From IMG/VR virus record IMGVR_UViG_3300039208_000521: a DNA stretch of 64,000 nt; one strand, 5' to 3'. The notes under the pieces were generated by a model. The model made no database searches, was not told the origin of the DNA, and saw only the letters and a list, made by a program, of their open reading frames with translations. Shown here piece by piece: positions 4,173 to 47,362 of this stretch; within the stretch, counting starts at the first letter, position 1; every line of letters starts with the position of its first letter. The translations under genes were made by a program, and so were the position numbers. Source of the DNA: a virus.

Positions 4173-4682
4173 CTAGGTCTTTGCTGGTATGCTGTTTTGA
4201 TTAAGAAAGGTTCGAAGATTTTCGGCGTCTTCCTGAACATTAATTGGTGACGGTGGTTTGTTGTCTTGTTCGTATCCCGCCAAGGCCTCTAAGACGGCAG
4301 TTTTCTTCTTCGGTCTGTTGTCGATTAACATGCCTGCTTTAGAGGCATCCATGAGAATGGCGCAACATGCCATGACGTGACCAAGATGGTGGACACCACT
4401 GTCCGGGGCGATCTCCTCGCCCGCCATCCATGCCATGAGATGACGACGGGCAGCCGCAATGTAGGTCAAAGCCTCTACCGGATTCTCATGCCAATTAAAG
4501 GCACCATATTTATCCGCTCCATTTTTATGCGCCTTTGCCCACTCAATCTCAGCAATCGCAGGTAGAAGATGGAGCGGAACCTTAGCGTCCCCATAAATCT
4601 GTTTGGGACTGGTCGGCATTTCGTAATATTTTTGACGATCTTCTGGAGAAAGTTCAGGAAAATCTCGGCGGGGCGTGGTCAT
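4173..4682 (-). CDS. dATP/dGTP diphosphohydrolase-domain protein (DUF5664-like)
   Basis: K..LHLLP...GADKYGAFNW...YIAAARRHL.AW..GE..APDSGVHHLGHVMACCAIL matches the family signature. Confidence 0.8.
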   Translation of the reverse strand: MTTPRRDFPELSPEDRQKYYEMPTSPKQIYGDAKVPLHLLPAIAEIEWAKAHKNGADKYGAFNWHENPVEALTYIAAARRHLMAWMAGEEIAPDSGVHHLGHVMACCAILMDASKAGMLIDNRPKKKTAVLEALAGYEQDNKPPSPINVQEDAENLRTFLNQNSIPAKT

Positions 4683-11549: not shown

Positions 11550-12269
11550 CTAACCTTTCTTGGCGATTTTACGCCATGTCGTTGTGGTCTGGAGATAGGT
11601 GTTGAAAATATCATCCGGCAATGCCCTTCCCTCTTCCGCCAGATCCTTGGCGAGAGAAGACAAGGTTTGCGGGAAGATGTGTGGAACGACGATGTTCTCC
11701 AATCCATCGGTCGTTTCTTTGATCTCTTCGATGATATAAGCTGGATCAACTTGCTGCGTGGCATCATCAGCCAATTTGGACGCTAAATTTTTTCGCCCAC
11801 CAAGTTCTAGAGCGTCAATAGCTGCGTTGTAATCCCCCATTTCAAGGGCTTTGATCGCAGTTTGATCAGCTTGGAGGTACGCGATCGCCCGCTCCTTGTC
11901 CTCCTTGAGCACAGAGCATTTCGTGCGGACCTGGGTTCCGACTTGCCGGCCGAAATCTAAAAGGGCGATGTGCGGTTGTCCGCTGTCTTCGAGAAGGGCT
12001 GGATAGTCATGCTCAATAAGCCGAGTATAGACGGCCTTGAGCTCCTTCATTTCCTGCTCGATGCTGTCGGCATCTTCAACGAACAGTTCTCGAAAGAGAC
12101 AATAGCAACGGGCTAGAGCCGTGGCGTCGTCTTCTCGCTGACACCGTTCAATCTCAGCTTCGAGACCTCGTTTCAAGGATCGAATGCGCATCACCATCTG
12201 TTGATGAAGAGCGCGGGCGCCGTCTGCGAATGGGGGGATTTCTTTTTTGTCGTCAGTCTGTTCTGACAT
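11550..12269 (-). CDS. conserved phage protein preceding the SSB-like gene
   Basis: C-terminal FPQTLSSLAKDLAEEGRALPDDIF pattern recalled from phage replication operons; has its own promoter and leader. Confidence 0.5.
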   Translation of the reverse strand: MSEQTDDKKEIPPFADGARALHQQMVMRIRSLKRGLEAEIERCQREDDATALARCYCLFRELFVEDADSIEQEMKELKAVYTRLIEHDYPALLEDSGQPHIALLDFGRQVGTQVRTKCSVLKEDKERAIAYLQADQTAIKALEMGDYNAAIDALELGGRKNLASKLADDATQQVDPAYIIEEIKETTDGLENIVVPHIFPQTLSSLAKDLAEEGRALPDDIFNTYLQTTTTWRKIAKKG

Positions 12270-14393: not shown

Positions 14394-14711
14394 ATGCACG
14401 GAGACGGATTGATGGAACTCTTAACCTTATTCCTCGGCGGCGGGCTGGTATGGATCGTTATATGGGTCCTTTATGTCCTGCTACAGACCATACTCTACGC
14501 TTTTTTAACATGCACCACGGGTTTTTCCGGTTTGTATATCGGATCCTGTGTCGACAGTTTCGACGTGTTTTACGTCGGCGACATCACCATGACATTCAGC
14601 GGCCTTGTTGCCTTCGGTTTGTTGGTTGCGACCTTTCAATTCGGCAGCCGATTTTTCCGTGAGGCGTCGGAAGCCTTTCCTCGGATCGTTAGGCCCTTTG
14701 GTGCTCGTTGA
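14394..14711 (+). CDS. stand-alone membrane protein (moron-like)
   Basis: Two hydrophobic segments; only + strand gene in a - strand region; own promoter and CACGGAGAC leader (start probably 14412). Confidence 0.6.
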   Translation: MHGDGLMELLTLFLGGGLVWIVIWVLYVLLQTILYAFLTCTTGFSGLYIGSCVDSFDVFYVGDITMTFSGLVAFGLLVATFQFGSRFFREASEAFPRIVRPFGAR

Positions 14712-20688: not shown

Positions 20689-21053
20689 ACCCGAACTCCC
20701 GCCGTCAGGCTTTCATAGAGTTCCGGCGTAATGTGCTGTTCCCGGCCGGCCTTCTGGCAAGTGATCGAGACAATGTTGCCGTCACCATCGTAGCTATAGG
20801 ATTTGGGGACGTAGCCGGCCTGCTCCAGCCGGAGCCCCATTTCGCCCGCGCGCTTGATGGTTTGGATGGATACCGTGTTAACTTTATCTTTCGCTGGCGT
20901 TCTCGCCATTGCATATACCTCTTTGTTGAAGGGTACGGTGTACCGAGTCGGCTCATCAGTTAAAGCCGGAACATCCGTGAGCGAAATCAGACCTTGAAAT
21001 TCACCAAGAGATTTAAGGCTTCGAATGAACCCCAAAAATTTCCATTCGCGCAC
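20685..21053 (-). CDS. hypothetical protein
   Basis: GTG start with ACGGTAGACAGAC leader downstream of a promoter. Confidence 0.6.
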   Translation of the reverse strand: MREWKFLGFIRSLKSLGEFQGLISLTDVPALTDEPTRYTVPFNKEVYAMARTPAKDKVNTVSIQTIKRAGEMGLRLEQAGYVPKSYSYDGDGNIVSITCQKAGREQHITPELYESLTAGVRV

Positions 21054-22257: not shown

Positions 22258-22464
22258 TCAACGAACCCCTAAGATACGAAGGATTGGGTGCTTGTACTTT
22301 TTGAGGCAAACGCCCGTCAAGAACGAGGCGATGGCAATCACGATGATGTCGAGGAAAGGATGCTGAATGTAAGAGAGCGCCGATGCTTTTGACATATCCA
22401 TAACGGATAAGATCGCCAGAAGAATAACGATGATCCACGCACGCTGTAACGTTGGTCCTGTCAT
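22258..22464 (-). CDS. small membrane protein
   Basis: Two hydrophobic segments; CACGGAGACAGACA-ATG leader. Confidence 0.6.
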   Translation of the reverse strand: MTGPTLQRAWIIVILLAILSVMDMSKASALSYIQHPFLDIIVIAIASFLTGVCLKKYKHPILRILGVR

Positions 22465-22559
22465 TGTCTGTCTCCGTGGTGAATGTCGGCTTTGCCGATC
22501 TGTTTGGAGGAGAGGCTAGGGCGCTCTATGACAACCCTTGCCTCTCACTCACAATAAGA

Positions 22560-22650
22560 ACCCTATTAAATCCTATTTTATTCGTCAAGGAGAAATTTCG
22601 TTTTTTAGGGCAAAAAGAAAACCCGGCGCAATCGCCACCGGGCTCTCTGC
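22560..22650 (-). promoter_or_regulatory. terminator plus phage promoter
   Basis: CCCGGTGGCGATTGCGCCGGG hairpin plus T-run, then GAAATTTCTCC-TTGACG-N17-TAGGGT. Confidence 0.7.
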
Positions 22651-22763
22651 ATTGCTCCCTCGGTTTCCCGAGTCATCCGGCATTGCCGGGATAGTGATAC
22701 AAGTACCTTGCTGTTAATAAGCACCAATGGCACCGAAACAACCCTATCACATCGATTAGGAAT

Positions 22764-22880
22764 AAAAAAGAGCCGGGGAACGGATCCCCGGCCTTGAAGT
22801 CGATGCCTCTTAGGCATTTCACGGATAACAGACAGACGACAATGCTCCTCCGAACCTTGCCACCCGCAAGTAACGCCTAA
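22764..22880 (-). ncRNA. candidate trans-acting antisense sRNA
   Basis: TTGACA at 22909-22904 upstream; 8-bp terminator hairpin (22772-22792) with T-run downstream; no sense ORF; complementary to 14015-14049 and to early-gene leaders. Confidence 0.55.
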
Positions 22881-22928
22881 GAAATATAGGGGATCATAGG
22901 ATTTGTCAAGTTCGTCAATCCCTTGTGT

Positions 22929-23193
22929 CTATTCCGGCGCTGAGTCCACGATATATAGTTTAGGGCAAAGACTTTCCCTAATATCTTCAAGAAGTTCTCG
23001 ATAGCCGGTAGCCGATGTGAATTCCGGTGACCGACCCACAATCATACAATAAGCCTCGCAAAAAGCATCTTCGGCCGCGTCCCGTTCGTTGATCAGTTGG
23101 AGTTCGGCGCGTTCATGTTCATTTCTCTCTCTTATACGTTCATTTGATATGCGTCTCACGGGATCTGATATAAGCAGATTCTCAAGGTCATTC
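22929..23193 (-). CDS. hypothetical coiled-coil protein
   Basis: Likely start MNDLENL within the track ORF 22929-23270. Confidence 0.5.
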
Positions 23194-27012: not shown

Positions 27013-27685
27013 TCATGATATAAACCCCCAAATACCTGAAAGAACGTCCAATGTGCCTTCTTTATAATTAATTTTTGTTTCTCTTCCCCATTCAGAACAA
27101 TGGAACACGATGACTTTTTCTATGTCCGGGTTGTCCTTCTGTTTTAGTTCATGAAGAACAATTTTCTTCATTTCGTGCCTATCTTGAGCATCAATATGGC
27201 GACCCATAATACGGGGTCTACCTTCCTTGACTTCGTACCTGATCAAATAGGTAGAAGGACGTCGCCCGCTGAAACCCCTATCACTGTTCATCGCCTGACT
27301 ACCCTCTGTTCACCAACGACATCCCCGCAATCATAAACATCGACGATGCCCCGATTGGCGTCATAGCTGTCGTGATAGATGCAATGCTCTTCAACCAGGC
27401 TTCGATGCATGATCGCGCCTAGGCCACAAACAACCAGGGTCATGGCGCATATCACTACGATGATCCGGTCTCTGGTCATCGGTAGAACTCACACCAACTG
27501 ATTACGAGGAAAGCCAACCGGCTTTTCTTGGGCGCTGATATGGAAACCAATGTACGCTCAAGATTATGAAGATCCGGGCTATTTCGCATGATCTCTTCGG
27601 CTTCTTCCCGACTGTCGACACGAATAACCTCAACCCATTCTTTTTCCATCGTGGTCGGATGCAAGGTGTAAATTTCAAGATACAT
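27013..27685 (-). other. three small early genes (27013-27291, 27288-27479, 27476-27685)
   Basis: Translationally coupled ORFs downstream of the promoter at 27.74 kb with an ACACGGAGACGACA-ATG leader. Confidence 0.6.
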
Positions 27686-27714
27686 TGTCGTCTCCGTGTC
27701 TTTTGTTATTCCCT

Positions 27715-27815
27715 ATCCTATTAAGGTGTGTAGGGTGTGTCAAGGATAAAGTTCAATAGGTAAAGCCAAAAGAAAACCCGGCCGATTCGCGGGGGAGTTT
27801 TCGGCCGGGTTTTCA
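27715..27815 (-). promoter_or_regulatory. terminator plus phage promoter
   Basis: AAAACCCGGCCGA...TCGGCCGGGTTTT hairpin, then TTGAACTTTATCC-TTGACA-N17-TAGGAT. Confidence 0.75.
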
Positions 27816-27940
27816 CTTCGGGAATTCGGCTGTCAAACCGAGGGGTGTCATACAGGGTAAAAGCGGTTGGATCGTCCAACCTGGGTTTATGAAAACCGGT
27901 CCTTGGAAACCGGGGGGGCAATCCAGCAACCACACTGGAT
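27770..27940 (-). ncRNA. candidate structured small RNA
   Basis: Between TTGACA (27977-27972) and the 27.8-kb terminator; hairpins ATCCAG/CTGGAT, CCGGT/ACCGG and GGTTGGA/TCCAACC. Confidence 0.4.
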
Positions 27941-28231
27941 ACACCTATAACCCTATGCTTCCCTATTTAAATGTCAATACGAATTTTTGGCGGTAAACCT
28001 AAGAAAAAAGCGACCGCACAACGCTAGCCGCTCTTCTCAAGCTGATTATGGAGCACAACAAAATTGATTATCTGGGTCGGCAATTCTCCTCAAAGGCAGC
28101 CCGGAAACCGAAGAACTCGGCACATCCGATCTAAATGAAAACAGGGGCATAGGAGCCGGGAAACCCTCAACGACCATTCGGCTCAAAGATCTCCATTTCC
28201 CCGGCTTGCGGCCCCACGGATGAGCCGAACC

Positions 28232-29290: not shown

Positions 29291-30011
29291 TTTCCGGTTT
29301 CGGGGCCGTGTTCAGATAGATCCCGCACAAGATAGCGAGAATGAACGAAAGCAGGGCAATCACGAGATCAATCGGCAACTGATAGGTGAACAATGATGCC
29401 ACGCCGAGGATGACTGCTCCGTACTGCATAAGAAGAACGATAAAACTGTTGATGTCCCAACCCATAGGTCAGACCCTCCATGTTATGGGCACTTCGCCCG
29501 TTTCCCTTGTAATAAGTGTCCTGATCTCAGTCTCTTTGGCTTTACCGACCTCGGTCCAAACCGGATGGCCCCATTCGTCTCGGCGTGTCTTTAGCCGGCG
29601 TCTGACTGTCCCATGCCGATCGACCGAGAACCGGGCGCCGTTAACCTGTAGCCGGTGGCCTAGGTAAAAGGACCAGACTCTTAAAATGGGATCGGGTCTT
29701 CGATCACTTTTCCGCCGTGCTTTGCGCAATGTTCCGACTCCTCAGTCATTTGTCGTCTTCAGAGATCAATACGACGTCCTCATCAGCCAAACCCATGACG
29801 TGCGCGTCTTGCTCATTGCATCCGATGCCGCCGACCAGATTGGCGATGCCATCCTTTAAACGCTCGTATGGTGTTTCTCGCGTGTCAGCGGCGAAGAAGA
29901 ATTTTTGGCCGGGTTGGAGTTCTGTGAGTTTCATCGCAAATGCCATTTACCAGCCACCGCATGAATGTCTTTGGTAACAGGCTTCTTCTCGATGTCGCTA
30001 AGCTTGGTCAT
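29256..30011 (-). other. small early genes (29256-29465 membrane, 29469-29729, 29746-29934, 29931-30011)
   Basis: Downstream of the promoter at 30.06 kb with an ACACGGGGACGACAA-ATG leader; the 26-aa ORF was read by hand. Confidence 0.55.
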
Positions 30012-30039
30012 TTGTCGTCCCCGTGTGATTTGTTATCTG

Positions 30040-30521: not shown

Positions 30522-32828
30522 TTAGAACTCATCCATTTCGTCTGTCCGCTCCATGCTGCCGTGCATGTCGTCATCTTCAATCGGGGTGCCGTCGATCACG
30601 GCGTCTTGATACCGCTCATTCAAGGCTTCTCTTGCTTCTTCAAGCTCCGGCAACAAAATTGCCCTATACCGATCATATCGACCACCAATCTGCTTTGTTG
30701 CCTGCTTTGGATCGATACCCGAACATTTCCACAACATGGCATGAAACGCAGGCGAGGGTATGCCTCTTTCGCCTTTATGCTGGTCCCTAAACGCCGCTTC
30801 AAGGGCCGTCTTTCCGATACTGGTCGGCCAAACCGCTTTCCCGTTTTTCGGCCTGACTTGGTCCATATGATCTTCCGGCACCTGAATGCGGCCGGCGTCG
30901 ATGCATTTGGCCCACCATTGCGCAACTGGATCCATACTCATCAAGATCTGTTTGCGACCAGCTGCCGACTGATAGCAGGACCGGAGCAAATCAACGCTAT
31001 ATTCATAATGCATGAGATAATCTAAGAGCTTGCCTGGTCCATCCCCATCAATCTCTTCGTAGATGGCCCTAAAGTGCTCCAACTTCTCCTCATCAGTCAT
31101 GTGATCCGTTGGATTAACCACATCAACCACGGTGTAACGTTGGTCATCGGCATCCCGGTTCAACACATGGATCTTGTTCGATGCCAAGACGACCCGGAGA
31201 TAATTTCGGCCGGATTTCGCATGACCCCACTTATGGTCCATGAAAAAATCTTTATCGGTGATCAAGGTCTTAAGGACATTGGCGGCTACCGTGCTTGAGG
31301 CAAAATCCGCCTCATTTGCAAACATCAAAAGCGCATACTGCAAATTTGAATTATATCGGTTGGTGATCTGTCCAGCCCCATTCATCTCGCGAACGTGGCG
31401 CATGCCAATAACGCATTTCATCATCTCGACAAGGGTGTTCTTACCCGACCGCTGACCCGACCTTAACATCACGGCTGTCCCCGGCTTTTGCATCGGGTTC
31501 TGCACAATGTCGGCAAGCCACGCCATCAACCAGTGCATCATCTCCTCATTATAGTCGCAAATGAACCGCTCCATGTGACCGAGCCATTTATCGATTGATC
31601 CCTTTGAGTTCGGTTTTGCCTGCCAACCTCGCCACAAGTTCAGCTTGCCGTCGACGACTTCGGCTTCCCCCGGCATGAAATCCGTCTTTCGGTATGTCCT
31701 TCTATCCGGGTGTTCAAACCAATATTTCGATTTCGGCACGAAGATATCTTTCTTCCCGGCCGGTAGCTTGATCCGGTCATTGCAGGTCAGCATGTGAAAT
31801 TCTTGGGGTGGCATGGTTTCGAAATCTGGAAGAGAAAGATCATTGACCACATCAAAGTCGATCACGCATACCTTGCCGAAATAGACGGCTACCGCGTATC
31901 GAGCGTTGAAATCCTCAAAGACAGCCGCTCTGGCATCCATAAAGAGTTTTCGGAATTCATAGACCAGACGAGGATAAGCCGTGATCTCAGCAAGCCTTGG
32001 ACCGCCGGCTATGCGTTGTTTGCCCTCTGCCCTTTTATAGGTGTCACGAACGGCGCGAATGACTTTCTTTCGGTCATCACCCTCATCCACATAAGAGAGA
32101 AAGCAATTCATCCAGTGAACAGCCTCGTCTTCTGTCCACTTGGCCAAATAGAACATGCCGGCATAAGCCATCGATAGATCGTGCTTGCAACCGTCGAACC
32201 AACCATGCTTTGCCGCCATGACCGTGAATGCAATTTTTCGGACAGCTCGGCGTAGTTCATAACTGTCGACGGCAGCCGGTAGCTTAGTTGGTACCTTGCC
32301 GTCTTTCCATTCGATTAACTCGCCTGATGTGTGAATTGTTCCCGGCATAACGGTTTGACCGCCATCAGCCCGGTATTCAATGATGCAAGAACGCTCTTTA
32401 GGATTTTCTTCACAAGACGGTATCTTTTCCGTGTCCATATAACCTTTGGCTTTTGGATCAATGGCACGCTGTTTTTGGGTTGTATCGGTCGAATCTGAGA
32501 TCACAAATACGTGATGTGAGCATTTTTTGCCTTTTCTACCAAAAATCCATCCTCCGTGTGGCAGATGGGACACAGCTAGGTTTGCGATATCAGGGTGGTC
32601 TAGATCTATGTCGACGAGTTTATAGCGCTCAGATAGAACGACACCGACACCTAGGTCTTCATTTTTCCAACGATTATAATCACTTGAGTATGAAGGATCG
32701 GAAAATCCTTCTTCGTCCGTAACTTTAGTATTTCGCTTTATAGGTAAGGGCATTAGCCCTAGGTTTTTGAGCAGGTCGACCGTTTTAAGGACTTCTGGCG
32801 AAGATTTAGAGGCCTTTGAGGTCATCAT
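30522..32828 (-). CDS. bifunctional primase-polymerase / helicase (Prim-Pol plus DUF5906/D5-like ATPase)
   Basis: N-terminal LVDIDLD...HHVF...IEYRADGGQTVMPG; C-terminal SGQRSGKNT, MFANEAD, LIT...N..RVVLASN. Confidence 0.9.
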   Translation of the reverse strand: MMTSKASKSSPEVLKTVDLLKNLGLMPLPIKRNTKVTDEEGFSDPSYSSDYNRWKNEDLGVGVVLSERYKLVDIDLDHPDIANLAVSHLPHGGWIFGRKGKKCSHHVFVISDSTDTTQKQRAIDPKAKGYMDTEKIPSCEENPKERSCIIEYRADGGQTVMPGTIHTSGELIEWKDGKVPTKLPAAVDSYELRRAVRKIAFTVMAAKHGWFDGCKHDLSMAYAGMFYLAKWTEDEAVHWMNCFLSYVDEGDDRKKVIRAVRDTYKRAEGKQRIAGGPRLAEITAYPRLVYEFRKLFMDARAAVFEDFNARYAVAVYFGKVCVIDFDVVNDLSLPDFETMPPQEFHMLTCNDRIKLPAGKKDIFVPKSKYWFEHPDRRTYRKTDFMPGEAEVVDGKLNLWRGWQAKPNSKGSIDKWLGHMERFICDYNEEMMHWLMAWLADIVQNPMQKPGTAVMLRSGQRSGKNTLVEMMKCVIGMRHVREMNGAGQITNRYNSNLQYALLMFANEADFASSTVAANVLKTLITDKDFFMDHKWGHAKSGRNYLRVVLASNKIHVLNRDADDQRYTVVDVVNPTDHMTDEEKLEHFRAIYEEIDGDGPGKLLDYLMHYEYSVDLLRSCYQSAAGRKQILMSMDPVAQWWAKCIDAGRIQVPEDHMDQVRPKNGKAVWPTSIGKTALEAAFRDQHKGERGIPSPAFHAMLWKCSGIDPKQATKQIGGRYDRYRAILLPELEEAREALNERYQDAVIDGTPIEDDDMHGSMERTDEMDEF

Positions 32829-32899
32829 CTGTCATCCGTTTATTGCGTGTTGGAGGGCCGTTTTAGGGCCCTGTTTTTGTCAAGTCAAGATGGCCGGAT

Positions 32900-33330
32900 T
32901 CGGGGTCTCGGTAGCCGGTAGCCGGGTGTGTACACACCCAAAAAGGGGGGTGTATAGGCCCTAAAAGAGGTGTGTAGGTGTGTATTTTAGCCCAAAATCC
33001 CTATCTTGTCTAATAGGATTGTGTCTTACGCTAATGAGACCTATAGGATGTGTCAAGGAGAAAGTTACCGATACACAATGGGGAGTGTGTACGAATACAC
33101 AATAGGGGATGTTCACCATAACCCTTAGTACCGGCTTGATAAAACAAGCGTACACACCGAACACAGTGGGGGGTTAAAGTCTTTTATAGAGGAATTTGTG
33201 ATTTAGAAACCAGCCGGACACATCAATTTTAAGATATAAAAGATACCTACATATTGTATGTGTTCGGTGTGTATGGGGTTTGACAAGGATAATATTTGAT
33301 AGTCGATTTTTGGGTCAAATGATAAATTTA
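32900..33330. repeat. palindromes and GTGTGTA iteron-like repeats, candidate replication origin
   Basis: 16-bp palindrome GGGTGTGTACACACCC (32924-32939); 15-bp inverted repeat at 33151-33165 and 33259-33273; several GTGTGTA copies. Confidence 0.6.
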
Positions 33331-33924: not shown

Positions 33925-36590
33925 AAACCCCGGACAATGCCGGGGCCCTAGATACGGTGTCACCTCCTTTGTTTGGCTAAGCTTGCCCTTATGGGTTTGC
34001 CATTCATTGTCACTTCGATTTCTGGGTCTAGGTCGTCTCCTTCTTCTATCTTTTGTTCAAGCCATTCGATTTGCAGTGTCGTTCTCCTGGTCCATAGGCG
34101 CCACATATGGAGAATTATGCCGAATAATGTGAAGAGAACGATTGCTCCTAGGAGGTTGACGGTATGTGCTTCCATTATCGTGGTGTCCATACGTAGATGT
34201 GTAGGTGATCGTTTGGGCTTGAGCTTGGTCTGTACGTTGTAGGCTTAATACGAATGCCCCTCATTTCATCCCGCATTCTCACCCATTGTGTTGCTCTTGA
34301 TACTTCGGATGGTTGTGCGTCTTTAGGAAGTGCCCATGCCGCATATGAATTGCCGTTTTCACATTCACCCCATCCCGACATGAAAGTATCACGAGCTAAA
34401 ACCATTTTGGTGTGGGTTATTTTTTGTTCGTCTGTTCTGTCGTCTTTGATTCGAATTGCCATTTGTCTGTTCCCGTGTCTTGGTTTTTCTTTATGTATTA
34501 ATCATACTTACTCTATATTTTATGTCAAGGATAAATTTCAACAAAAATTACCTATAATACATAAAATTTTATCTTGTATCATTTTGAGACTCATTTTGAG
34601 AATAAAAAGAAATCCCGGACAATGCCGAGGCCAATCTAACGGGAAAGGGTGTGTGGATTACGTTTTAGCTACGTCAAAAGTCATTACGACACATGAGTCT
34701 GTTTTCCATCCATATCCGACTAGGTCATGATATCGAACAAAGTCACGGCTGAATTCATCTGAGGTAAGGAACCTAAAATGTCCGTGATGCTCTTCCATGT
34801 CCTCAATGAACCTGTCTAGGATAGCTTCGTCATCGTCGTTTAGTGACGTTCTGTCGTCGTATGCGAAGAATGTTAGGAGATGTTCTGGTAGAAGGTAGCA
34901 CGCCATTTCCATAGGTCACACTCCAAAAAGAGACGAGATGACAGACCACAAACTCTTTGAGCCGCAGACGAGATCACATTCACGCCGAACTACCTCAATG
35001 ACCCTATTGGAATGCTTGGGCTTGTTCATGATCCGGTCTAAGTTGTTTGCTAGTTCTGTCATCTGTCTAGTTCCGTGTTGTCTTTTGCTTATTCCCTTAT
35101 ATTAAGGACTGGGTTGTGTATGTCAAGGATAAATTTCAACAATTATCATATTCTTCTGAATTAGCTGCTTCCCACACAAGATAAATGTGTGCAATGTCCA
35201 TATCACTGAAATCTGTTTCACTATCAAAATACACATTCTCACAAGTTTCTTGTTTTTCTTTATCCGTTGCTGGCCTGTTTTTGTATTTACCGTTTTCATC
35301 AAGAGCAACAATCCTGAACTCAACGCCTATATGGTCAAGGATGTAACGGCATGCGTCTTCGCAGTCTCCTGTGGTTGTGCAGTCATGAAGATCTTCTTCG
35401 AATTCCGTTCCTTGGATGGATTGGCCATCAATCGTGCAAACAGATGCTCTTGGTTCATGTGGGCATATTTCTATGATTAGTTGTGCTGATGACATTTTCT
35501 TAGCTCCTTACCTCGATCACAAGACCCTTGATCTCAAAGATAACCGATCCATTGACGCCATTTGTTTTCTTGCTTGCCAGAGCCGATAGGTAGCTCATCA
35601 GGAAGGAGAGTTTCTTTTCTGCCAGTTCCCTTGCGTTGATGGTCATTTGTCTATTCCCGTGTTGTCGTTTTATTTATTGTAATTGAAAAATATCCATAGA
35701 TCATCTGACACAGTTTCGTAGGATTTTACTATTCCAACTTTATATAGATTGTAGGCATATTCTTTTGATTTATTCAGTTTAATTTTGATCGTTTCTGATA
35801 GGGTTGCCATCTGTCTGTCTCCGTGTTGTCTTTCTATTTGTACACACCGTACACATCCCCTATCATAATGTAAAGGATAAATTTCAACAAAATGATCAAT
35901 ATTCTATGTGTGTTCTGTTTTGTTTTAAAATCGTTGAAAGCACGAATCAGAAAACCGGCCTTTCAGCCGGTTCCCTAATTCCGATTGTTGACTTGGGGGT
36001 TGGGGCCTTAGGCCCCTTTCCCTTGTGCGTATTTGAAAACCTCGGTCAGTGACGGTGAGTGAAATCTGGTTACGCCGTTCTTGTCTGCTGCATATGCCCA
36101 AAAAATCGTCTCTGTGGAAATCATGTAGATGTCTAGGTCGTTTACGGTTGCTATCGGCCTGTTGGTCATCTGATTATTTCCTTGTTTTGAGGTTATGTCT
36201 TTTTATAGTCGTTCTTGGATTATATGTAAAGGATAAATTTCAACAAAATGATCAATATTCTATGTGTGTTCTGTTTTGTGTCAGTACGTGTCAGTAGGTG
36301 TTCACTTTATGTTCTTAATTCCCTAAAGCACCAATCAGAAAACCGGCCTTTCAGCCGGTTCCCGAACTCTGATTATTGGTTTCCTTATCGTGTGATCGCT
36401 CTCCATAGAATGTGGTTCATTGTAATTTGTTGAACTGCCATTTTCGTGCTGTAGGTGATGTTTCCGTTGTTCCTGCAAAGTGCGAACCAAGCGATCAATC
36501 GGCTATTCATTTTCTGTCTCCGTGTTCTGTTGGTATACACACAGTACACATCCCCTATCATAGTGTAAAGGATAAATTTCAACAAATATG
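33925..36590 (-). repeat. array of promoter-microgene-terminator cassettes
   Basis: Five copies of TTGAAATTTATCC-TT(G/T)ACA; exact 56-bp (35868-35923 = 36224-36279) and 31-bp (35945-35975 = 36333-36363) repeats; ORFs 33960-34190, 34175-34462, 34658-34912, 34916-35062, 35136-35495, 35500-35646, 35670-35810, 36008-36169, 36385-36510. Confidence 0.85.
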
Positions 36591-42520: not shown

Positions 42521-42595
42521 AAAGACATAAGCGGTTGTTTCCGAGGCACCGGTGTCCTGGAAACAACCGCTAAAAACAAACACGGAGAGACAGAT

Positions 42596-45388
42596 ATGAC
42601 GCCGACATGGTTCTTCATGATTTTTGCTGTTCTGCATTTTAGTGGTGACCAAGCCCACGGTTATGCAGTTGTGCCGACGATGGATCGCTGCGCCGAGAAG
42701 GGATTTGAAATTCAACTAGGCCTCGCCAAGCAAGGGATAGCCATGAGGTTTAAATGCACGGTCACCGATCCCCGGAAGCCGGTCATCGTTGTCCTGCCAA
42801 TCCAGCCGAAGGGAAAAGCGATATGAGCGCACGTATCACAGTTTATGCAGAGCTTAACGCCAACGACGTTGCTTCGGCATTCGAAGATCTTGATTTTGAT
42901 GATCAACTAGAAGTTCTTAAGCGCATCGGTCAGCATTTCAAAACACTCGATCATATTGAAGAAGTCGTTTGGCATGCGGCAGCCGACGACTTTGTTCCGA
43001 TCGAGGGTCTGTATGCCATCGCTAAAGAGTTGAAAGCGAAAGTCGACAGAGATCGGGAACAAGAGATATGAAACGCTTTCAAGTTCAAACCAAGGGCCGG
43101 GATGTCATCTGGCATGATGTCATCGGCAAGGCCTTTAAGGACGCAACAGCCGAGCAACGGGCGATTTTGTTGAATTGCCTCGTGAATTTTGCGGGGGTGA
43201 CGAATCCGAACCCCGCTTCACTCGCCAATTCCATTCAGCCTTATCTCAATGACAACGTGATTGAGTTGATGCGCGAAATCGTCAGGAGCAGAGACGAGAT
43301 ATGACTAAGAAATACTGGCTAAAAAGCCCGGAAAGAGAAGGTGTTGTGATGACCGAAACGGCAACATATGGCGTCATCGCCCGAGGAATGAGCTTTGTTC
43401 CTTTTGACCCTCCTCACTTCACGGATTCTCCTCACGTCAACCGGATGAGTTGGGGGATTTCCAGGTTTCAAATTACCTAAGAAGGTGCCCCTATTCCGAG
43501 CCACAGGATCGGGCAGCCGGTAAAAATGTTGATCGGTTGCAGGGCCTATTCGGCCGTGATCATGGAGATCCAGACGGAATGTTCTTGGTCGCATGCCGAG
43601 GTGATCGGGGAATTCGGTCATCGGTATATTCAAGGCGAGAGATCGACACAAATCGAAGTCTTGATCCTGGAAAAGGATTGGCCGAGCGACAGTTACGCCG
43701 ACATTGAATTCAAGTGGGAAAACAAAGATGTCTGAAGCCAGAGCGGGCGATTGGGTTCCTGGAAGCCGGTTACAAGGCATTCAACACACCGGGCGCTACC
43801 AACCCCCATGAACCGGGTTCGGACTTAGCTGAAGCTTGGGAACAAGGGCTGCGTTACGCGCTACAAGATCACGACGCCCGACAGACCTTTAATCCTTTGG
43901 GATAATCTTCGATGGCAAAGCATGACGGACAACAGATTCAACAAGCGATCAACATTCGCCAGTCTTTGAAGGCCCAAGCACGATATGCGGGAGGAAGAGG
44001 CGAAGAAGTCCATATAACGACAGAACTCTTTGAGAACGGTCTCCGAGCTCTAGCCGCCTTGGAAAGTGTCGGTCGAACCCTAGAAAGCCTTGATGCTGAG
44101 GTTCGAGACCTAAAAGGCCAGGTCAAAGGATACAAGGACGCGATTTCGTCAATGCGCCTGAATGTACATGCCGAACAGGTTAACGTGACCAAGGTCATTC
44201 ACGTCGACGATGAAGAGGACTATGGCATATGACCCTAATTGAGTTCCTCCAAACCCTTCCAGCCGAGTGGCCGGTTTATGTGGCGCTTCTTTGCGCCGTT
44301 GCGATCGTCACCTCGGTCTCGGTGTTCATCATCCGAGTTTGGGTGACCCACTCCCCAAAGCTCCGGGAACTAATCCGAGAAGAACAGATCGAAGTGCTTG
44401 GTGATGAGGGGCATCGAAGGAAATGAATGATTTCAAAAATTGGTATAGGCGTATGCCGAAGCCACATCATTACGAATACATGCTCAAGCACAGTCTGTCA
44501 TTTCGTATCATTATGATCTCTATTTTTGTTCTGGGGTTTGTCCTCGGTTACCTTACTAAAATGGGTTTGTCCTCATGACCATAAAGCCGGAAGACCTAAA
44601 AAAGCATCATCTGGATAATATAATTGTTCGTCACGCCAATAAGTTGGGAAATCCTCGCTCCTGGGATCAGTATGACGAAGATTTCAATACACTGCTGAAA
44701 TTCGCCCGAAAAGTGGTCGTCAATATCGGTTTGGACATAAGTGCGTCTACGACGACATATTTTGAAGCTAATGAGCCGGAATCCGGCCTTCCTGATCTGG
44801 ATGAGCTGGCCTCATGTTTCGAGCTCCAAATCGGCCAAGCCCTGGACGTGGTTGTTGGCTACTACGTCCCAGCCGAAACCTACATCAAAGTCGCGACGAT
44901 CGACGACGGTCTTTGTCCTGAATGCTTTGGTATGGGGGATATTGAGGGGGAAGAGTGCCCTCGTTGTGTTGATGCGGGTGAGGCTCAGATGTGGAAAGAG
45001 AGCGATTTCAAAAAAGTCTGTAAGGACATGGGCTATGAGCCAAAAACCGGTGATCGAGCTTCTTAAGGGTAACAGTTTGGGTCTGGACCTTAGAAAAGAG
45101 CTTCGAGAAATCGAGAGAGAAATTTATGAGGCATTTTTCGTGCCCAGGAGATTATTGATGCCAAGAACCGTTGTTATCAGAACTTGCATTCTCGCCAACA
45201 CCGCCCCCGGAGAGCGCGTCCGGTTCCCGGCGACCAATGTCGTACTGCGCCGTTGCCAGGATCCCTTGCTCAGCATTGTCCCCCTTAACCCGGACTATCC
45301 TTACTCCATTCCCTGTGTGGACGAGAATGATTGGAAGATCACGCTCGTTAAAGAAACCGCTCAAGTCGAGGTGATTGAAGAACAATGA
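42596..45388 (+). other. run of small early/middle genes of unknown function
   Basis: Coupled ORFs including 42596-42826, 42823-43071, 43068-43304, 43526-43735, 43912-44232, 44229-44426, 44575-45066. Confidence 0.6.
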
Positions 45389-47342: not shown

Positions 47343-47362
47343 TTAACGGAGACAGATGATCG

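Follow-up and report, generated by a model that had tools for sequence, protein, structure and literature searches.

Does a small RNA of an uncultured phage read the ribosome-binding leaders of the phage's own early genes, or is the sequence that suggests so an inverted relic of such a leader? The question is raised by a 464-nt gap separating two - strand genes, in which an inverted copy of the leader is found. On the + strand, 22820-22844 read CACGGATAACAGACAGACGACAATG; the - strand RNA would read CAUUGUCGUCUGUCUGUUAUCCGUG there, a sequence unique in the window (0 expected). The window is the whole stretch of DNA analysed here, 64 kb in length and part of a phage of approximately 77.5 kb. It holds genes for a family A DNA polymerase, a Prim-Pol/DUF5906 primase, an SF1 helicase, a terminase and a portal protein. 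A DNA search against the GenBank phages found no relative of the window, and the best match to its DNA polymerase is 31% identical. Between about 4 and 37 kb the genes lie on the - strand, further on they lie on the + strand; no gene for lysogeny was noticed.

The transcription unit and its relatives

The following elements of a putative sRNA gene were identified in the gap, in the order of transcription.

22904-22909, - strand: -35 element TTGACA of the sRNA promoter, just past the stop codon (22929-22931) of the upstream 88-aa gene
22883-22888, - strand: -10 element TATATT, 15 nt from the -35 element
22764-22876, - strand: predicted sRNA of about 113 nt, its 5' end placed from the position of the -10 element and its 3' end from the U-run
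22856-22870, - strand: hairpin 1, CUUGC-GGGUG-GCAAG, the form taken in cofolding when the seed is target-bound
22820-22844, - strand: seed or anti-leader CAUUGUCGUCUGUCUGUUAUCCGUG, complementary to SD, spacer and AUG of the leader family
22803-22817, - strand: hairpin 2, AUGCCU-AAG-AGGCAU, its stem pairing kept among relatives
22793-22802, - strand: conserved single-stranded linker CGACUUCAAG, possibly a second pairing block or a protein-binding site
22764-22792, - strand: strong intrinsic terminator with a 9-bp G+C-rich stem, a loop and U6

The promoter spacer of 15 nt is suboptimal for sigma-70. An A-rich, promoter-like stretch on the + strand (22755-22770) was discarded, as it merely is the complement of the terminator U-run. 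The predicted fold of the sRNA has -46.4 kcal/mol (z -3.5). When the RNA is folded alone, a 12-bp stem with five G-U pairs is predicted to take up the CCGUG half of the seed, leaving this half a mean unpaired probability of 0.06, and CAUUG is located in the apical loop. Target binding therefore needs refolding; cofolding still predicts net gains, and the target-bound sRNA adopts the small hairpin 1 that is seen in relatives. Searching Rfam, no family reached the gathering threshold for the sRNA. Matches below it (RF00519 mmgR, SorX, anti-hemB, isrC) were set aside as a generic hairpin-plus-terminator likeness.

Related phages were reached via homologues of the helicase, which are 43–65% identical, and further sRNA units were found with an nhmmer profile built from the first four and later from seven copies. 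Homologues were detected in L002, L003, L006, L007, L128, L130, L131, L133 and L134, which together with the window makes ten distinct phages; L131, identical to L132, was counted once. Two contigs from other samples (SRR4039775 and JGI 3300038492) are the same phage, with an identical intergenic region. Pattern scans of IMG/VR, with CGAYTTCAAGGCCGG or with seed plus linker, gave chance matches in coding DNA only, helicase profile scans of IMG/VR and GTDB gave distant helicases only, without the sRNA, and single-protein helicase scans of IMG/VR and JGI metagenomes gave nothing useful.

The position of the unit is the same in all ten phages: 3' of the helicase cluster and immediately 5' of an early promoter. 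A -35 element TTGAC(A/T/C/G) is found at the corresponding place throughout; the complete promoter reads TTGACN-N15-TATAT(T/A) in eight phages and TTGACT-N17-TAGTTT in L131 and L007. Common to all ten is also the plan of the RNA, with a short 5' tail, hairpin 1, a single-stranded seed, hairpin 2, the linker GACUUCAAGG and the terminator. At the position of hairpin 1, nine of the ten sequences form a 5' hairpin whose stem sequence differs in each, and it is weak in L133; the stem sequence of hairpin 2 varies among most phages, with the pairing retained. The most conserved single-stranded block of the family is the seed core CUGUCU(N)ACCGUG. In its longer form, (G)GCUGUCU-N-ACCGUG, it is the complement of CACGG-N-AGACAGC.

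In a plain MAFFT alignment, which was not fitted to the structure, 85.9% of the specified pairs are formed across the ten phages and seven base pairs show compensatory double changes. In pairing, double changes and covariation score alike, all 500 shuffles stayed below the observed values, and sliding the pair partners lowers the pairing and covariation scores. The G-U pairs of the stems are compatible with the - strand only. Fold z-scores lie between -2.6 and -4.6 in six of the seven homologues tested, and in six relatives the unpaired probability of the seed is 0.43–0.80, compared with 0.06 in the window. Judged by this comparison, that is by a promoter, three hairpins with compensatory changes and a terminator in ten phages, the - strand sRNA gene is real.

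A second structured unit lies between the sRNA terminator and the next early promoter (22612-22763, - strand). It is about 135–150 nt long, has its own terminator and a predicted fold of -59.9 kcal/mol (z -4.75), and may be driven by an extended -10 element (TGATAGGGT). It is missing in the relatives, where the early promoter directly follows the sRNA. Another unit without ORF, from promoter to terminator, is found at 27768-27977 (- strand): TTGACA-N16-TAGGGT is followed by about 176 nt of highly structured RNA (-60.8 kcal/mol), the terminator of which is located just upstream of the early promoter at 27756. For this unit BLAST detected no conservation in the relatives.

The leader of promoter-proximal early genes and its predicted pairing with the seed

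The initial annotation had listed eleven gene starts with a shared leader, and the leader is indeed present at all eleven, on the strand given in each case. Ten of them have CACGG(A/G), followed by GACAGACA-like spacers up to the ATG; at start 21053 ACGGTAGACAGAC-GTG takes the place of this form, and at 42596 the leader is on the + strand. Further members, beyond that list, were found at 14397 (+), at 47345 (+) and in front of the primase gene (32839..32826, -). The number of early genes concerned, put at ten or more in the initial annotation, holds as well: at least 12 first genes behind sigma-70-type promoters carry CACGGRGACAGACA-ATG. At up to one mismatch, CACGGRGACRRM has 15 sites in the window, compared with 4.1 ± 2.1 in shuffled sequences, and 0 of 100 shuffles reached 15.

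The leader contains the SD (GGAG or GGGA). Most copies lie 3' of a conserved promoter, TTGAAATTTATCC-TTGACA-N17-TAGGAT, of which there are 15 copies at up to three mismatches (0.03 expected), with one more at about 22600. Genes internal to operons have ordinary, varied SD sites without the shared leader. Its spacing to the AUG is constant, while the stretch between it and the promoter varies in length between about 16 and about 75 nt; this suggests a signal in RNA or for translation and not a part of the promoter.

The 5' leader of the gene that follows the sRNA is unusually long, 75–130 nt, both in the window (22480-22555, -) and in L002, L003, L006 and L128. In these four relatives it contains a conserved arrangement GGGG...GGCTTTGACC...CCCC, which may be a cis-regulatory RNA structure.

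That a - strand RNA would be antisense to this leader is borne out by a complementarity far above background, in the window and in five relatives. The individual pairings proposed at the outset could be reproduced: 11 perfect bp with AGACGACAAUG (27685), 11 bp including one G-U with ACAGACAGAUG (35810), 9 bp with AGACAGACG and 8 bp with AACAGACA. The pairing with ACAGACAGAUG can be extended to 16 bp with three G-U. For the energetics, the full window RNA was cofolded with 60-nt translation-initiation regions and charged with the cost of opening both partners. Twelve leaders of the window gave a mean net binding of -14.9 kcal/mol, with nine of them at about -13 to -20, compared with -6.6 for 33 other translation-initiation regions (Mann-Whitney p 8e-5). 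Random sense windows, 200 in number, gave -5.8 ± 3.0 kcal/mol, and RNAs with a shuffled seed gave -7.1 ± 1.8; of the latter, 0 of 40 reached -14.9. Leader and primase starts also separate from other starts by cofolding in L002, L003, L007, L131 and L133, with p between 0.018 and 0.0006. The predicted general targets in the window are the following (net binding in kcal/mol).

22462-22478, - strand: leader and AUG of the 68-aa gene directly 3' of the sRNA gene (start 22464), CACGGAGACAGACAAUG; -20.1, the best in the window
35808-35825, - strand: leader and AUG, start 35810; 16 contiguous bp (three G-U), top sense-strand site in the window; -19.9
35060-35077, - strand: leader, start 35062; 14 bp (three G-U); -19.9
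34460-34477, - strand: leader, start 34462; -17.8
35644-35661, - strand: leader, start 35646; -17.6
42581-42598, + strand: leader, start 42596; -17.6
27683-27698, - strand: leader, start 27685; 11 perfect bp with AGACGACAAUG; -15.6
30009-30025, - strand: leader, start 30011; -12.9

Net binding is weak at three of the originally listed leaders, with -8.6 at 21053, -8.4 at 36510 and -3.7 kcal/mol at 12269. The initial annotation had called for a genome-wide target ranking. By contiguous pairing, the 35810 leader is the top sense-strand site of the window. An unrestricted duplex ranking was noisy and did not single out the leaders in relatives. With long query stretches, unrestricted RNAduplex ranking was swamped by G+C-rich coding sites; contiguous-pair scoring and cofolding were used instead.

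Outside the leaders, the only strong binding value at a gene start (-16.9 kcal/mol) belongs to a leader-like block, AGCGGACAGACGA, at 30538-30550 (-), within the 3' end of the primase ORF and just 5' of an overlapping 73-aa gene (start 30523).

Pairing of the general leader is limited to 9–12 bp, with a bulge, in most relatives. The most distant clade, L133 and L134, has changed on both sides. Its general leader, found as CACAGAGACGGA at 4285, 5811, 6973 and 12562 of L133 and at 566 of L134, went from CACGGAGAC to CACAGAGAC, and the seed became GUCUCUGUG, so that a G-to-A change in the leader is matched by C-to-U in the seed. The seeds of this clade read GGUCUCUGUGA or GGUCGUCUCUGUGA, the bulged nucleotide being lost.

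In L133 (19570-19592) and L134 (12529-12551), furthermore, the last part of a 69-aa gene contains a bipartite site, CCCUUGGAAG-UCACAGAGAC, 87 nt 5' of the holin gene. It is complementary to the sRNA linker (8–9 bp) and seed (10 bp) with hairpin 2 looped out, and a link of the sRNA to the lysis cassette is possible in this clade. A three-block match claimed earlier for the lysis-cassette leader of the window itself could not be reproduced, and no bipartite site was found in the window.

The primase leader

The clearest phage-by-phage covariation is with a leader that was absent from the initial target list. It belongs to the primase gene (Prim-Pol/DUF5906, 767–768 aa), which has its own promoter, TTGACT-N17-TAAAAC.

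32826-32839, - strand: predicted target, primase leader including the first AUG, ACGGAUGACAGAUG; 14 contiguous bp (three G-U), net -16.5 kcal/mol

Across the phages compared, the primase leader reads as follows.

Window: ACGGAUGACAGAUG
L002: ACGGUAGAUA (the form ACGGUAGA/G is common to L002, L003 and L007)
L003: ACGGUAGGCAA
L007: CGGUAGAUAGG
L131: ACGGUAAGAUGG (also given as ACGGUAAGA)
L133: CACGGAGACC

In each of these six phages the primase leader pairs contiguously with the phage's own seed, over 10–14 bp with one to three G-U. When all six seeds were combined with all six leaders, no other of the 720 permutations scored as well as the cognate assignment, whether by duplex energy or by contiguous length; about four independent states enter this test, since L002, L003 and L007 share one. 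The differences between the primase leaders also explain the extra nucleotides of the seeds, namely UA in the window and in L131, and A in most relatives. By cofolding, the primase ranks first among targets in L002 and L003, seventh in L007 and 17th in L131, and by contiguous pairing first or second in L003, L007, L131 and the window. From the seed match we predict primase leaders of approximately ACGGAUGACAGA in L006 and ACGGUACACAG in L130, and of ACGGUAGACAG in L128 and CACRGAGACGAC in L134.

The primase promoters form a class of their own, TTGACT or TTTACA, N17, TAAAAC or TAAATA (window 32850-32905, -; L002 about 1505-1560; L003, L007 and L131). A short inverted repeat GGGCC...GGCCC brackets the -10 element and may be an operator. 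In the sRNA, a 5' tail UGUCAUUCAG is conserved in three phages (L002 12483-12492, L130 2843-2853, L128 3059-3068), and that of L002 is complementary to the primase start region GAAUGACA. This match suggests a bipartite seed, with an SD block and an AUG block, around hairpin 1.

Proposed function and known regulators

Taken at the sequence level, the gene has in all ten phages the makeup of a trans-encoded base-pairing sRNA, an independent intergenic unit with its own promoter and intrinsic terminator. Its structure is conserved through compensatory changes, and seed and targets covary, for the primase leader as well as for the general leader. The conserved seed is accessible in the six relatives tested, but only 0.06 unpaired in the window, and is complementary to predicted targets 0.4–13 kb away. 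We consider it probable that this is a trans-acting phage sRNA aimed at the ribosome-binding leaders of the primase and of promoter-proximal early genes, whose translation it is expected to repress by pairing. The sRNA would accumulate from its own sigma-70-type promoter and end at the intrinsic terminator, with two short hairpins flanking a single-stranded seed. The seed would pair with the SD region (ACGGAG or ACGGUAG plus a CA-rich spacer), and in the window phage also with the AUG, of the primase mRNA and of promoter-proximal early mRNAs with the CACGGRGACAGACA leader. Since the pairing covers the 30S binding site, translational repression is expected, probably with faster mRNA decay, both being read from the position of the duplex. 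Expression of the primase and early genes would then be damped or shut off as the sRNA accumulates. Comparison supports a real gene, a conserved structure and a joint change of seed and leaders; expression, the direction and timing of the effect and any requirement for a chaperone we infer. By origin, the seed may be an inverted leader copy, in which case some of the likeness would be inherited and not selected. Going further, and with less than even confidence, one may see in this RNA a master switch at the post-transcriptional level: through one seed that coevolves with a private ribosome-binding tag, it would shut off the whole promoter-proximal early regulon together with the primase, and in some relatives a second block would also touch the lysis cassette.

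Several other readings have to be weighed against these. The sRNA could be a dedicated replication controller with the primase mRNA as its sole selected target, a trans-encoded analogue of the plasmid copy-control antisense RNAs, the complementarity of the other leaders being a by-product of the shared motif family. This would account for the phage-specific covariation with the primase leader and for the rank of the primase, first by cofolding in L002 and L003 and first or second by contiguous pairing in L003, L007, L131 and the window. It would also account for the extra seed nucleotide of the bulge-type clades, which fits the primase (GGUAGA) and not the general leader (GGAGA), and for the 5' end of the L002 sRNA (UGUCAUUC), which matches the primase start region, too. 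We nevertheless regard a restriction to the primase as unlikely. It is weakened by the window seed, which is extended by the blocks GACGACAAUG and ACAGACAG that fit general leaders (27685, 30011, 35810) but not the primase, and by the seed of the L133/L134 clade, which matches the general leader CACAGAGAC perfectly, but the primase only by way of a G-U. Moreover, general leaders bind at least as well as the primase in the window, L007, L131 and L133.

Even less probable, in our estimate, is a real sRNA that does not act by leader pairing, be it through protein binding, on host mRNAs, as a structured insulator or terminator module, or because the shared motif serves as a DNA operator that can be recognised in either orientation. 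As one might expect in these cases, conservation of the linker GACUUCAAGG and of the hairpins does not depend on the seed, and hairpin 2, the GACUU-A linker and the terminator weakly resemble an alphaproteobacterial sRNA scaffold, RF00519 (suhB/MmgR, alpha-r8 of Alphaproteobacteria). At 24.9 bits (E 0.002) this match stays below the gathering score of 41, its alignment deletes the CCUCCC block and it is missing in L002 and L007, and we rejected membership in that family. However, the lineage-specific covariation of seed and primase leader and the clade-specific covariation of seed and general leader are what RNA-RNA pairing predicts and what a single DNA- or RNA-binding protein would not give; the spacing of the leader is, moreover, fixed to the AUG and not to the promoter. 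Finally, the initial annotation had offered as its alternative an inverted relic of an early leader on the + strand, preceding a 12-codon ORF (22842-22880), without a functional - strand RNA. The + strand can indeed be read as a degenerate leader with ATG and 12 codons after it, but it has no early promoter upstream, and the roughly 17 nt between GGA and ATG are too many for an SD. Eight homologues lack the mini-ORF, in the ninth, L003, it is cut to ATG-TAG, and the conserved features, namely promoter, G-U-containing hairpins and U-tailed terminator, are those of the - strand. We consider the relic very improbable.

Host genes or one phage operon are the usual targets of the phage sRNAs known so far. 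The c4 RNA (immI region) is a structured RNA of about 77 nt that acts in trans on a phage mRNA, pairs around the ribosome-binding site and blocks translation; RNA and target co-vary between P1 and P7. It is processed from a precursor, controls one operon (icd/ant) and serves the immunity of a temperate phage-plasmid. This phage antisense RNA of P1/P7 (reviewed in PMC12197685) is the nearest known RNA. The sRNA described here is likewise phage-encoded and structured, is predicted to pair in trans around ribosome-binding sites and co-varies with its targets. In contrast to c4, it has its own promoter and terminator, and it is predicted to target a dozen transcription units separate from one another as well as the primase gene. 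The c4 type of immunity antisense RNA, cut from a longer operon transcript and with targets in the same operon upstream of an antirepressor gene, was not what we found, and Rfam gave no sequence likeness to c4. Plasmid replication control offers a further parallel: with CopA/repA of R1 and the Inc RNA of ColIb-P9, a gene for replication initiation has its ribosome-binding region covered by a small structured RNA. These RNAs are cis-encoded and fully complementary, whereas the sRNA gene here lies 10 kb from the primase gene and has a seed of 10–14 bp. A cis-antisense RNA of the lambda OOP or P22 sar type would lie opposite a gene or leader that it regulates; no conserved ORF or promoter is located on the + strand opposite the sRNA.

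The nearest functional analogues are proteins. RegB of T4 cuts GGAG SD sites, and many early and middle mRNAs are bound by RegA at their ribosome-binding sites, so that many early mRNAs are hit post-transcriptionally via a shared feature of translation initiation (PMC3014915). Here, unlike with RegB and RegA, one RNA would recognise the other by pairing, and what the mRNAs share as a tag is a longer private leader (CACGGRGACAGACA). VpdS of vibriophage VP882 and PreS of lambda are phage sRNAs that pair with several mRNAs and favour phage development, VpdS regulating phage mRNAs as well (PMC12197685). They are described mainly as regulators of host genes or as Hfq competitors, and neither as aimed at the shared leader of its own early regulon or at the primase. 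An sRNA seed that reads a private leader tag on a dozen early transcription units and the primase gene would differ from the known target sets of phage sRNAs. If true, virulent-type phages can time their programme by an RNA regulator where T4 uses RegA and RegB, and the switch of early regulon and primase would be the RNA counterpart of these proteins. The covariation of seed and leader across ten uncultured phages represents a ready set of natural compensatory mutants, and the tag-and-seed pair is short and portable enough to suit heterologous reporters without culturing the phage.

As to the host, the relative L130 is a contig (JBPCVP010000042.1) of the NCBI assembly GCA_051010415.1, binned in a MAG labelled Geminicoccaceae. 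Together with promoters resembling CTTGAC/CTATAT and the weak Rfam matches to alphaproteobacterial sRNAs, this hints at an alphaproteobacterial host.
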